A stretch of 64,000 nucleotides of DNA from a virus (IMGVR_UViG_3300044971_002537:32001-96000), one strand, 5' to 3'; shown: positions 11,103-56,860, counted from the first letter of the stretch. Program-made: numbers and translations. Notes: a model not told the origin generated them from the letters alone.

Positions 11103-11567
11103 TCAATCATTGGTTAGTCCGGAAAAATCAATGGGGAGATCCACTGGCTCATGCCGATTTTTCGGCAGTTTATCCCAAGCTCGCCTATGAAGAGTTATAG
11201 TGTAGTGCGACAGCATACACCAGAAGACTTCACGATGTAGTACGTGAGTACGTTGTACATCCATAGTAGCTTCATAAAATGCATCGATATGAACAGGAGG
11301 GAAGACTGGGTAATCTATATTCTTAGGGTCAGGATCGGTAAAAAGGAAGTAGTGCTTCCCAGCATGGGGCGTTTTGAATACGCCACTATACCGAAGAACC
11401 CTTTGATAAGAGGCATCAGAACAGCATGGGATACAATGAACCACTCCACTACCGGGTAGATGACATGGGCACTTACATGGGTAGTATGGGCTTTTATACT
11501 CCACGAAGTAGAGGGCCTTGTATACAAGGCCAAATTGGGCGGCTAAAGCCTCTTGAATATCTTTCAT
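11103..11567 (-). CDS. hypothetical protein with Cys/His cluster
   Basis: CKCPCH...HCIPCC; TAATG coupling. Confidence 0.6.
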   Translation of the reverse strand: MKDIQEALAAQFGLVYKALYFVEYKSPYYPCKCPCHLPGSGVVHCIPCCSDASYQRVLRYSGVFKTPHAGKHYFLFTDPDPKNIDYPVFPPVHIDAFYEATMDVQRTHVLHREVFWCMLSHYTITLHRRAWDKLPKNRHEPVDLPIDFSGLTND

Positions 11568-12595: not shown

Positions 12596-12949
12596 TTAGT
12601 CGACGACTACCTCAACTTCCAACATTCTACATCGCTCGACGGCAAAGTCAAGAGCGTCTTGGAACATTTTGCTCATATTGGACAGCAGGAGATCGTGCCC
12701 ACTATTGATAGCTTTGATCACGCCCTTGTGTTGGCGAGCGGCAGCGTCTTTTGGATCGCCGAGCTTCTCATATTGGAGCCAATTTGGCCACAAGTGGCTC
12801 TCCCAAACACAATAGAAGAGCATCATCTCTGCTGGGGTTCCACGGACTGAGACGACTTCGTTGTCGGAACTTTTGCTTACTTTGATCATGATTAATTCTC
12901 GATATCTAGTAATGTGATCTTGTGACGATCCAAAACCCCAATAGCACAA
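12596..12949 (-). CDS. hypothetical protein (true start probably near 12889)
   Basis: ORF directly downstream of the capsid paralogue. Confidence 0.55.
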   Translation of the reverse strand: MCYWGFGSSQDHITRYRELIMIKVSKSSDNEVVSVRGTPAEMMLFYCVWESHLWPNWLQYEKLGDPKDAAARQHKGVIKAINSGHDLLLSNMSKMFQDALDFAVERCRMLEVEVVVD

Positions 12950-13713
12950 AAATATGCTATAGAAACAACCTCAACACCTTCTCTTTTATCTGGAATCTGT
13001 GTGACCTTGTGAGTCTTAGCGTCAAACTTAAAGGCAGTATTAAAGCCCATAAGTGGCGGCAAGTGCGGTAACTGCGTAAGTACCATAGTATCTGGTCTGT
13101 CGCACCTAACCATTAGGCCAACATCTTCTTTGAACTTAAGCATGGCACAATTGGCCATGTGGTCTTGGAATGGTTGGCCCTTCCCGAGAAGGTGACTACA
13201 GATGACGTTTTCTGCGAGAAAAGGAGGAGAAGGAAACGCAAATCTTGCGTCAAGAGTTTCAGGACTGATGACGAACTTATGTCGTGGGGAATTGGTAGAA
13301 AGGATATGGGATTTTTCATACCCGAAAATCGCACGAGATTCGGCTCCTGCCGCAAATAAGGTATGCAGCATGTCGGACTCTATGCGTCTTTCTAGACCTC
13401 TAGCAAGTACTTCGTAAACTCTCTTAACGAGAGCTGGTCTGTCTTTATGCTCAGTTTTATATGTGACGTTCTGCTGGATCATATAGGGGATAATGCGAAT
13501 AGTGTGTTTACCATCCCCAAAAAAGTCGATAGGGAACTCAAGCTCTTCAGTTCTTGTAAAGAGCCGTGCAATATCAGGCAGCTTAAAATCACAAAAGGTG
13601 GCAAAGCGATCAGCGGCAAGGACGTTCGTGTTAGGAGTCGCAATAGCCGAGCCAGTGAACAAAGGCATAGCAGACAGGCCACAGAACTTAGCGAATGATC
13701 TTCTTGATAGCAT
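12892..13713 (-). CDS. Tat-signal-bearing divergent paralogue of the major capsid protein
   Basis: N-terminus SRRSFAK, hydrophobic stretch, then AIA; collinear blocks match the 54144-55151 MCP (EFPIDFF/EFPLDLL, VL..G....I..D..H.L.AAG, ISPETL/LSPEAL, LG..Q..Q, LD...I.L). Confidence 0.75.
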   Translation of the reverse strand: MLSRRSFAKFCGLSAMPLFTGSAIATPNTNVLAADRFATFCDFKLPDIARLFTRTEELEFPIDFFGDGKHTIRIIPYMIQQNVTYKTEHKDRPALVKRVYEVLARGLERRIESDMLHTLFAAGAESRAIFGYEKSHILSTNSPRHKFVISPETLDARFAFPSPPFLAENVICSHLLGKGQPFQDHMANCAMLKFKEDVGLMVRCDRPDTMVLTQLPHLPPLMGFNTAFKFDAKTHKVTQIPDKREGVEVVSIAYFCAIGVLDRHKITLLDIEN

Positions 13714-13728
13714 AATGTCTCCGATATT

Positions 13729-13757
13729 TAAAAAAACCTATGGTGCCGAAAGCACCA
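13729..13757 (-). terminator. intrinsic terminator
   Basis: TGGTGC-TTTCG-GCACCA-TAGG followed by a T-run. Confidence 0.6.
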
Positions 13758-13759
13758 AA

Positions 13760-13844
13760 TTCCAGATGCTGGTAATGCACCAGTTGCCACTTCCTACTAT
13801 ATTGATGGCATGCGGGTTACAGCCGCACAGCAGGATCATCTGGA
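13760..13844 (-). ncRNA. D-armless tRNA-Tyr(GUA)-like element
   Basis: TCCAGATG/CATCTGGA closing stem; TGCGG-CTGTAAC-CCGCA; long variable arm; T-like hairpin. Confidence 0.5.
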
Positions 13845-14014
13845 GATTACGGTCTGTGATAGCTCTCCTATTAGACGTAGGATTACTCAGACCGGCGATT
13901 CTTTTGAGTGAACGCCCGTGGTCCCAAGAATCTGCTAAAGAAAACACCCTACCGGAATAAGCTTATCAACCCTTGTCTAAGGGGTTGCATCACCTATTCT
14001 GTCTCGCCTGAAAA

Positions 14015-54143: not shown

Positions 54144-55151
54144 TTGATGTCGTTCACTAAGCCGAATCCAGAGTTCATTGAAATGCTTAAGCAGTCTGGC
54201 GATACGTCGCCATCTGTAGCATATGCTGGTCAGGAGCAGATGGCGAAAGCTCTTCAGACTCCTCTCCGCGAAGCTATCTTGGTGGGAGACGTTACTGCTC
54301 CTATCTTTGAGAAGCTTACACTTGATGGCAATTCTACAGCCGAGTTCCCACTCGACCTGTTGAATCCCGGCGACGAAGTTGACTTCGTAGCCTATACGAA
54401 TCCCGGCCATGGTCGGATTCCAGAACGAGCAGTTGAAGGCGACTACATTCAGGTTCCGACCTATGGTATCGCTAACTCAATTGACTTCTTGGCACGATAT
54501 GCCCGTGACGCCCGCTGGGATGTTGCTGGTCGTGCTATGAAGGTGCTGGAAGCTGGCTTCGTTAAGAAGATTAACGACGATGCTTGGCACGTTCTGCTTG
54601 CCGCTGGCGTAGACCGAAACATCATGGTATATGATGCTGACGCTGCTGCTGGTCAGTTCACTAAGAGATTGGTTTCTCTTATGAAGTCGGTTATGCGAAG
54701 AAATGCTGGGGGTAACTCTGGCTCTATCTCTCGCGGTCGATTGACCGATATCTATCTTAGCCCAGAAGCTCTGGAAGATATTCGAAACTGGGGCGTGGAC
54801 ATTGTTGACGAAACGACTCGTAGAGAAATCTACGTCGCTAGCGACGATGGTGCTATTACCCGAATTTTCGGTATCAACCTCCATGCTATGGACGAGCTTG
54901 GTGAGTCACAGGAGTATCAGTCCTACTTTACTAGTCAGCTTTCTGGTGCCCTTGGCCCATCAAGCGACGTAGAGTTGGTTGTTGGTCTTGATATGACTAG
55001 CCGAGACTCCTTCATCATGCCTGTTCGGCAGGAAGTTATGATCTACCCAGATCCTAGCTACTTCCGTCAGGGAAGAGTTTCGTTCTTCGGAAATTGCGAG
55101 CTTGGCTTCGCAGCATTAGACAACCGTCGCATTTTGCTGGGTTCTCTCTAA
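54144..55151 (+). CDS. major capsid protein (HK97 fold inferred)
   Basis: Synteny, size, biased codon use, strong downstream terminator. Confidence 0.8.
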   Translation: MMSFTKPNPEFIEMLKQSGDTSPSVAYAGQEQMAKALQTPLREAILVGDVTAPIFEKLTLDGNSTAEFPLDLLNPGDEVDFVAYTNPGHGRIPERAVEGDYIQVPTYGIANSIDFLARYARDARWDVAGRAMKVLEAGFVKKINDDAWHVLLAAGVDRNIMVYDADAAAGQFTKRLVSLMKSVMRRNAGGNSGSISRGRLTDIYLSPEALEDIRNWGVDIVDETTRREIYVASDDGAITRIFGINLHAMDELGESQEYQSYFTSQLSGALGPSSDVELVVGLDMTSRDSFIMPVRQEVMIYPDPSYFRQGRVSFFGNCELGFAALDNRRILLGSL

Positions 55152-55264: not shown

Positions 55265-56860
55265 ATGCTGCTCGATGACAAAACAATTAAAGAATTTGGC
55301 TATTCACAAACTTCACTTAGCAAGCACTCAAAAAATATGCTCTGGCTTAAGTGTGATTACTGTAGTAATGAGTATACCAATGCACACTGCCGAAGAGTAA
55401 AGTCAAATGCAATGCTGGATAAAGACGCATGTAGAAGCTGTAGGATGATAAAAATAGGCGATATTAACTTTATCAAACTTGGGGTAAGAAATGTTTTTGA
55501 GCTAAAGTCTACCAAGGATAAATTAACTAAGACAAATCTGGATAGGTATGGAGTTGAAAGACCATCACAATCTCAGGCCATTAAGGATAAAGTTAAAGAC
55601 ACCATGATGGAGAGATATGGTGTCGATAAGATAATGGATATAGACGGGGTAAGAGACAAGATTAAAGAGACTAACTTAAAGAAGTATGGTGTTGAGAATG
55701 CTTCTTCGGTTGAGGAGTTCAAGGAGAAAAGGAAGAATACGTGCAAAGAGAGATTTGGTAAAGAGACATATCTCGGGTCTGAAGATTGTATCAAGAAAAC
55801 AAAGGAGGTCACTGGGGTCGACAATGTGTTCCAGCTAGAATCGGTAAAAGAGAAGTCTAGACAAACTATGCTAGAGAAGTATGGCGTAGATAATCTAATG
55901 AAGTTGCCAGAGGTGAGAAAGGATAGGATCAAGAAATGCAGACAGACCAAGATAGATAAAGGAATATTAGCTATTCATAAGGGCAGAACCAAAAGAGAAT
56001 GGGCAGAAGAAACTGGCTTTTCTAGGTCCCGATTTAGCGTTCTAGTAAAAGAGAACGGGTGGGAATTGGCTGTTAAGATGACCCCACGAATTAGTTCCCT
56101 AGAAGCAATAGTCGAGGATTGGCTGAAGCAAGCTGGGATAGAGTATAGCAAGCAGGTAAAAATTGGCAGATATTATGCCGATTTCACAATAGGTAATTTG
56201 GCCATCGAACTCAATGGTACTTATTGGCATAGTGAACTACACAAAAAGGACGACTATCACGTTAAGAAGAGAGAGTTCTATATTGAGCAAGGATTCGTAC
56301 CGCTATTCTTTGGTGAAGATGAAGTCACTCAAAAGTTCCATATAATTAAATCTATCATCCTCAACAAACTTGGCAAGAGTACCCGCCTATTCGCTCGCAA
56401 GCTCAAAATTGGCCAAGTCGGTAAAAAAGAAGGTGCCAAATTTTTAGAGGACAACCATCTCATGGGACAGGGGCGGGGCGAATGCATCGGCCTTTATGAT
56501 GGTACTGAGTTAGTAAGCCTAATGAGGCTTCGTCGAGTCAAGGGAAACGATTGGGAGATTTCCAGATTTTGTAACAAGGTTGGCCATTCGATTGTGGGCG
56601 GTTTGAGTAAGATCCTCTCCTTTTTTACTGAGGTGTTTAAGCCCGAAGGGCTTATTTCCTTTGTGGATTTGAGATATGGGACTGGAGACTATATGGAAGG
56701 GCTTGGCTTCGTAAGGGGCAAGGCTTTTAAGAGCTTTAAATGGACAGATGGTAAGAATTTGTTTAATCGCATGAAATTCCCATCTAATACTGGCTATGAT
56801 CATAAGCTCTATAAGTTGTGGGATTGTGGTCAGCTCAAGTTTTCCAAGAAATTTATGTAA
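55265..56860 (+). CDS. homing-endonuclease-like protein (KYG repeats plus Vsr-like domain)
   Basis: Repeated T...KYGV.N; ADF..LAIE.NG.YWHS; FL..NHL.G; WDCG. Confidence 0.75.
   Translation: MLLDDKTIKEFGYSQTSLSKHSKNMLWLKCDYCSNEYTNAHCRRVKSNAMLDKDACRSCRMIKIGDINFIKLGVRNVFELKSTKDKLTKTNLDRYGVERPSQSQAIKDKVKDTMMERYGVDKIMDIDGVRDKIKETNLKKYGVENASSVEEFKEKRKNTCKERFGKETYLGSEDCIKKTKEVTGVDNVFQLESVKEKSRQTMLEKYGVDNLMKLPEVRKDRIKKCRQTKIDKGILAIHKGRTKREWAEETGFSRSRFSVLVKENGWELAVKMTPRISSLEAIVEDWLKQAGIEYSKQVKIGRYYADFTIGNLAIELNGTYWHSELHKKDDYHVKKREFYIEQGFVPLFFGEDEVTQKFHIIKSIILNKLGKSTRLFARKLKIGQVGKKEGAKFLEDNHLMGQGRGECIGLYDGTELVSLMRLRRVKGNDWEISRFCNKVGHSIVGGLSKILSFFTEVFKPEGLISFVDLRYGTGDYMEGLGFVRGKAFKSFKWTDGKNLFNRMKFPSNTGYDHKLYKLWDCGQLKFSKKFM

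Follow-up and report, generated by a model that had tools for sequence, protein, structure and literature searches.

The stretch analysed here, called the window, comprises 64,000 nucleotides (positions 32001-96000) of the record IMGVR_UViG_3300044971_002537, which derives from an uncultured, aquatic, 140-kb phage; the record is 139.8 kb long and is estimated to be 72% complete. In the ORF list of the window, 12892-13713(-) is an intact open reading frame of 273 codons plus stop, and encodes a leader-bearing, capsid-like protein. The gene adjoins tRNA-Leu, tRNA-Trp and genes for an HD_4 hydrolase, an RNA ligase and a macro domain, with small ORFs of unknown family nearby, and it is located about 40 kb from the head module on the opposite strand; a first-pass annotation of this DNA had placed it at this distance among tRNA and RNA-repair genes, and the gene map bears this out. 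The ATG at 13713 is the first start after the upstream stop and is preceded by a Shine-Dalgarno-like GGAG (13719-13722(-), 5 nt 5' of the ATG), read directly from the sequence. The public gene call (P0001, 258 aa) opens instead at Met16 and therefore lacks the leader, as does the ESM Atlas entry, which starts at the same codon region (13663-13668). In the homologues the position of Met16 is occupied by Thr/Ala-Ile/Leu, and all homologues begin with M-L/I-S/N-R-R or M-K-R-R. Since Met16 is not kept in these proteins, all of which open with the twin-arginine (RR) leader, ATG 13713 is the true start. The absence of the leader from database entries hides the export signal, and such proteins are easily overlooked.

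Upstream of the gene, about 270 nt without an ORF (13729-14005(-)) end in a terminator-like hairpin with a T run (13757-13741, about 25 nt upstream of the ATG), a weak feature from a consensus scan whose count was not above that of shuffled sequences. No Rfam match was obtained for this stretch at the gathering score. Compared with L004, a near-identical phage, it is 41-90% identical and has an extra gene inserted in L004. A Cys-rich ORF of 150-155 aa, located between the upstream small gene and the leader-bearing gene in L004 (4721-5173(+)) and in L003 (4728-5195(+)), is not present in the window and represents an indel in the variable island. Downstream lies an ORF of 97 aa (12596-12889(-)), 58% identical in L001 and 51% in L003, which diverges in step with the leader-bearing gene and is deleted in the otherwise near-identical L004. 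It is common to close family members only and is not recognisable beside the distant ones; as a conserved partner gene it was rejected for its restriction to close members and its loss in L004. It may be a partner, or the second cassette of one variable island. A further hypervariable spot is the 154-aa ORF at 11103-11567(-), which is 43% identical in L001 and has 34-46% nucleotide identity to L004, where the adjacent genes are 99-100% identical.

The phage's real major capsid protein (MCP), used here as the comparator, is encoded at 54144-55151(+), and its profile matches PDB 6wkk_A, 'Gp27 major capsid protein' (E 4.9e-12). The MCP gene is preceded by the large terminase, a 676-aa ORF where the portal gene would be expected, a 439-aa ORF whose only matches are of the coiled-coil type, and a cement protein of the XM1 gp53 / E217 gp24 type. 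More than 4,600 relatives of the MCP occur in aquatic metagenomes. Directly after the MCP gene follows a 531-aa ORF (55265-56860(+)) with DUF7487 repeats and a DUF559/restriction-endonuclease-like domain, which looks like a homing-endonuclease-type insertion in the head module.

A BLASTP comparison of the leader-bearing protein with the MCP is marginal (E 1e-4, 64 aa). Aligned by hhalign, five family members against 17 MCPs gave a probability of 91.8% and E 7e-7. Six distant members joined the family alignment through an exhaustive profile search over 1.84 billion representatives, and with 11 members against the 17 MCPs the probability is 99.2% (E 7.7e-20, 222 columns), residues 33-272 pairing with MCP residues 36-333. 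One distant bridging member (P0131), in which the RR leader is present, matches the window's MCP with E 1e-12 and 34% identity over 121 aa. In a six-frame search over four genomes with related phages, the family profile matched only MCP genes (E 1e-13 to 1e-6). Pfam Phage_capsid_4 (PF25209) scores the leader-bearing protein at 13.4 bits against a cut-off of 27 (E 0.094), below threshold, and the window's real MCP likewise stays below the threshold of this model. PHROGs returned no match for either protein, NCBIfam returned nothing relevant for the leader-bearing one, and the family profile alone found nothing among the PDB sequences. A weak family-profile match to a protein of 1350 aa (P0133) was set aside as spurious, this being an ankyrin-repeat protein. 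On these alignments, the leader-bearing protein is homologous to the phage's HK97-fold MCP over nearly its full length. The collinear relation described in the first-pass annotation is recovered at profile level, and its blocks (DIARLF, EFPIDFF, IRIIPYMIQQ, the spine-helix block, SPETLD, LGKGQPFQ and GVLDRHKITL) show the same pairing in hhalign and MAFFT.

The predicted mature body (residues 26-273, 12895-13638(-)) has, in the model, the HK97 fold with spine helix, P-domain sheet and A-domain. The confident AF2 model (pLDDT 82.9, pTM 0.79) was obtained with MCPs in the alignment, an addition justified by the homology, so that the modelled fold is no separate evidence for that homology; with the five closest family members alone, AF2 gave an unusable model (pLDDT 46). 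Among the top matches listed by Foldseek are only HK97-fold capsids and encapsulins (probability 1.00). VIA-align gave Z 13.1 and an rmsd of 3.3 Å over 196 residues to HK97 prohead I, and 50 of the 50 entries listed are HK97-fold shells. In the ESM Atlas, which uses no alignment, both the sequence and the single-sequence model fall among MCP clusters (TM 0.55-0.58). An HK97 fold had been anticipated at first pass, and the AF2 model compared by Foldseek and VIA-align agrees with it.

In hhalign, MAFFT and the model, the leader and a short linker stand in place of the first ~35 residues of the MCP (the N-arm), in keeping with the earlier proposal that a SRRSFAK-type leader had taken the place of the N-arm. 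Residues 59-73 (13495-13539(-)) form the stub of a hairpin that is 22 residues shorter than in the MCP. Both hhalign and MAFFT place the gap between H70 and T71 (GDGKH/TIR), at the tip of the hairpin before a strand and the long helix 93-130, and in the model short strands (59-61 and 71-73) flank a loop just ahead of that strand and helix. Judged by HK97 topology, the shortened hairpin would be the E-loop; P0131 retains about half of this segment. The spine helix itself (residues 93-130, 13324-13437(-)) is a helix in the model, makes up the core of the BLASTP and hhalign matches, and is the best-conserved block in common with the MCP. The first-pass annotation had held that the deleted segment was the E-loop and counted 27 residues. 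The position of the gap agrees with this; the length does not, hhalign giving 22 columns, and the E-loop is not the sole deletion, since hhalign and MAFFT also show two shortened A-domain segments (gaps against the MCP at about 163-195 and 212-232) and an inserted, conserved hairpin. The A-domain segment shortened at these two places (residues 131-213, 13075-13323(-)) is hypervariable and has the lowest conservation. The hairpin is a family-specific insert (residues 214-235, 13009-13074(-)) with the pattern LPxLPPLMGFNTxFxF, an insertion relative to all 21 MCPs in the alignment. It is 18-22 residues long across the family, with P220, G223 and N225 nearly invariant, and in the model it forms the strands 221-224 and 226-231.

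The signal peptide (residues 1-25, 13639-13713(-)) consists of the n-region MLSRRSFAK, the h-region FCGLSAMPLFTGS and the c-region AIA, followed by TP; cleavage would occur after AIA. The twin-arginine codons, R4 and R5 (13699-13704(-)), are invariant columns of the family alignment and, together with M1, account for three of the eight invariant columns in the 11-member alignment. All 13 members have RR at residues 3-5 and 11 have SRRxF; the motif SRRSFAK is found in most of them, with the variants SRRNFAR, SRRMFSA, NRRSLLE and KRRTLLQ in others. The uncharged stretch that follows RR is 12-25 residues long in the 13 members, and an A/V/L-x-A site is present at residues 24-28 in each. As far as the sequence can tell, this is the anatomy of a cleavable Tat signal, and the RR leader first noticed in this one protein extends to all 13 family members. 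Of the findings that the first-pass annotation named as refuting, a lack of significant similarity to the MCP and a loss of the RR motif in homologues were both looked for, and neither was observed. No TatA or TatC is encoded in the record at its estimated completeness, so the host Tat system would be used. Curated Tat-signal models returned no match in Pfam (E up to 1) or NCBIfam (E up to 10), searches in which the HMMER filters drop most weak matches to short models. Neither a strict nor a relaxed scan of the 139.8-kb record returned another Tat-type N-terminus. The only other clear candidate for an exported protein in the record is a 209-aa ORF outside the window (G000:C1:3049-3678(-)), which has a classical, strongly hydrophobic Sec-type leader (MKRALILAIILLIMF...).

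Because the leader is short, the main rival to Tat is an ordinary Sec signal peptide with two chance arginines, by which the protein would be exported unfolded and would fold outside the cytoplasm. The leader has 25 aa with RR at residues 4-5 and an AxA site, and short leaders with basic residues that near to the N-terminus are common for Sec signals; the lack of a Tat-signal HMM match in the searches above counts in the same direction. Some known Tat signals are equally short, however. In SufI and CueO of E. coli, RR lies within the first five or six residues and is followed by a G/A/S-rich h-region and AxA, in a leader of about 25-28 residues. The phage leader shares these features, whereas SufI and CueO differ from the phage protein as cofactor-binding host enzymes. 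A Pfam scan detected no cofactor-binding family in the phage protein, and the reason for its use of Tat would therefore be a fold that forms in the cytoplasm. Against the Sec reading, RR is never changed to K in 13 members down to ~22% identity, F or L stands at +2 in all of them, and the h-region is only mildly hydrophobic (mean Kyte-Doolittle 1.0-1.9 across the family) and has many G, S, T and P residues, as in Tat but not in Sec signals. Sec export is thus considered improbable.

The first-pass annotation had described the protein as a copy of the phage's own MCP, a view that phylogeny does not sustain. In a maximum-likelihood tree, 25 MCPs form one clade, separated by a long branch (support 99) from all 13 leader-bearing proteins, which are not nested among the MCPs and whose terminal branches are ~5 times longer. 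Because the leader-bearing proteins lie outside the whole sampled MCP clade, the family is, on this tree, an old sister lineage of that clade and not a recent duplicate. The gene also varies over short distances. Between the window and L004, with flanking DNA 96-100% identical, the leader-bearing gene is only 47-76% identical; the 90 nt that encode the leader are exempt from this drop (97%), and the lowest values, 47-59% nucleotide identity, are found in the A-domain segment (residues 131-213). Proteins encoded by neighbouring genes are 88-100% identical to those of L004, versus 60% for the leader-bearing protein, and the ranking is the same for L001 and L003. In the L001 phage the MCP is 90% identical to that of the window and the leader-bearing protein only 48-52%. 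Within the protein, identity among close members is 75% for the insert, the best-conserved part of the body, and lowest (47%) for residues 131-213. With dN/dS of 0.08-0.32 and every copy intact (13 of 13, 269-295 aa), the gene is under selection. A diversity-generating retroelement was considered as the source of variation and rejected, since a search of the whole genome showed no repeat of the gene that could serve as a template; the mosaic pattern is more likely due to allele exchange.

The family is rare, with 13 sequences from about 5.8 billion clusters and the contig scans; the search for similar leader-bearing paralogues in related phages, suggested at first pass, thus yielded 12 intact members in addition to that of the window. 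Scans of IMG/VR, metagenomes and GTDB added only three loci, and the GTDB scan found the family to be absent from prokaryote genomes. A tblastn search with the leader-bearing protein and the MCP against 50,697 phage records found nothing. The terminase has relatives at only ~23% identity among the phage records, and so the phage has no cultured relative and no host assignment. MCPs of this phage's MCP family (50-70% identity) sit in metagenome-assembled genomes (MAGs) at the loci L008-L020, two of them on contigs of about 140 kb, with assignments to SAR202, Gammaproteobacteria, Flavobacteriales, Alphaproteobacteria, Bacteriovoracaceae, Thermoplasmatales and others. Most probably the contigs come from phages and were mis-binned, and the bins give no host call since the MCP relatives are spread over many unrelated phyla. 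Where genomic context is available, the family's genes are located among small non-structural genes of large phages. The gene is absent from relatives with 50-63% identical MCPs, and as these related phages have the same capsid family, the capsid does not need the leader-bearing protein.

This distribution bears on a second alternative, in which there is no export signal and the protein is a cytoplasmic capsid-related factor, i.e. a paralogue for the vertices of the kind of T4 gp24, a modulator of assembly or a decoy for host defences that sense capsids. The protein is an MCP homologue, its neighbours (macro domain, HD_4, RNA ligase, tRNAs) look like counter-defence genes, and vertex-building MCP paralogues are known in T4, where gp24 is the vertex paralogue of the MCP gp23 and thus a second, diverged capsid-protein copy in one phage genome. 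However, gp24 is part of the virion, its gene adjoins that of gp23, and it is not known to carry an export signal, whereas the present gene is distant from the MCP gene, on the other strand, tagged with a leader and absent from relatives that have the same capsid family. The tripartite anatomy of the signal peptide is kept in 13 of 13 members, and the protein evolves far faster than the MCP. A cytoplasmic factor is therefore distinctly improbable, and a sensor decoy or capsid poison in particular fits poorly with a protein that would leave the cytoplasm.

In secreted proteins, conservation is usually lowest in the signal peptide. In the present family it is highest there, with a mean pairwise identity among close members of 86% for the leader and 47-60% for the body. 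This is unusual for a tag that serves targeting only and suggests that the N-terminus may do more than target. One possibility is that the leader engages the host TatBC without the body being passed, and that the protein acts on the Tat machinery (for example by blocking host Tat substrates) or stays anchored in the membrane. A stable anchor would require a longer and more strongly hydrophobic h-region, however, and the conserved A/V/L-x-A site suggests cleavage, so that such an action is held to be highly improbable. That the gene is a decaying, functionless relic of a duplicated capsid gene, as its fast divergence, several deletions and patchy distribution could suggest, can practically be dismissed, given 13 intact copies of similar length, the low dN/dS and the strong conservation of the leader, several motifs and the family-specific insert.

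Among known systems, the MCPs of the phage G gp27 type (PDB 6wkk_A) have the same fold and are homologous over nearly the full length. They differ from the leader-bearing protein, which has a leader for the N-arm, deletions in the E-loop and A-domain and a new hairpin, and whose gene is located outside the head module, evolves about 5 times faster and is dispensable in related phages. Encapsulins, whose HK97 fold is likewise compact at about 250-270 residues, rank with the best structural matches of the body (Z 12-13). With 8-14% identity they have no sequence relation to it beyond the fold; no encapsulin Pfam match was obtained for the protein, so the similarity is structural only, and the neighbouring genes scanned gave no Pfam match to cargo-type families. 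The encapsulin cEnc of the anammox bacterium Kuenenia stuttgartiensis was reported to carry a cleavable N-terminal signal 'reminiscent of twin-arginine peptides', and its leader as printed has no RR pair (bioRxiv 10.1101/085266). It is the nearest precedent, from which the present protein differs in being phage-encoded and hypervariable and in having RR. Searches of full-text papers turned up no account of a phage capsid homologue with a Tat tag.

The reading preferred here is that of an HK97-fold protein of MCP descent which, as its sequence suggests, is probably made to leave the cytoplasm, most likely by Tat; the explanation as a whole, a Tat-exported HK97-fold body with a more tentative accessory role at the envelope, is also rated as fairly probable. 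The pre-protein would consist of two parts, a cleavable Tat signal (residues 1-25) and a compact HK97-fold body (residues 26-273), the latter from the same lineage as the phage-G-gp27-type MCP, with its N-arm, distal E-loop and some of the A-domain lost and a conserved beta-hairpin gained. It would be synthesised from the non-structural, leftward-transcribed region, fold in the cytoplasm and be exported by the host TatABC, with signal peptidase I cutting the leader after AIA. Outside the cytoplasm (in the periplasm if the host is diderm) the body would be a soluble monomer or small oligomer. It would form no shell, since the parts by which capsomers are locked to one another have been lost; without N-arm and distal E-loop a closed shell is probably not built. 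We infer Tat dependence, cleavage site, location and oligomeric state from sequence features.

The pattern of selection, the patchy distribution and the position among non-structural genes agree with an accessory conflict gene whose product acts at the envelope, and it is the fast, mosaic evolution together with the patchy distribution that would place it in this class. For its role, superinfection exclusion or the masking of an envelope component is preferred as a tentative guess, by analogy with the superinfection-exclusion proteins Imm and Sp of T4, Llp of T5 and Ltp of TP-J34, which are phage-encoded away from structural genes, sent to the envelope, accessory and variable. To our knowledge, none of these has a capsid fold or a Tat leader. 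A bolder and still more doubtful idea is that large phages have, on repeated occasions, made an envelope protein with Tat export out of their own capsid fold. In the present family the conserved leader and insert would then serve delivery and docking, and the hypervariable A-domain would be the specificity surface that recognises incoming phages or an envelope component, amounting to capsid-derived superinfection exclusion or receptor masking. If true, this would be the first case of a viral HK97-fold protein at work outside the cytoplasm. The fold is familiar from shells built in the cytoplasm, those of capsids, encapsulins, gene transfer agents and satellite capsids; export of the present protein, if true, would mean that a phage reuses it outside the cytoplasm in a member that lacks lattice arms, keeps an export leader under selection and evolves in the manner of a conflict gene, and would point to an unstudied class of phage envelope effectors. 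The protein is directly testable, with the leader in Tat reporters and the 248-residue body for structure and assembly state.

Outside the window, a 197-codon frame at G000:C1:28890-29483(-), the same locus as L033:1891-2484(-), contains a stretch of 39 residues that is 41% identical to MCP residues 150-188 (hhalign 80.6%, E 1.3e-5; tblastn E 2e-5). The frame has no leader and no similarity to the leader-bearing family. Its matching stretch is exactly the A-domain segment that this family lost, and by its sequence the frame may be a third capsid-derived fragment.
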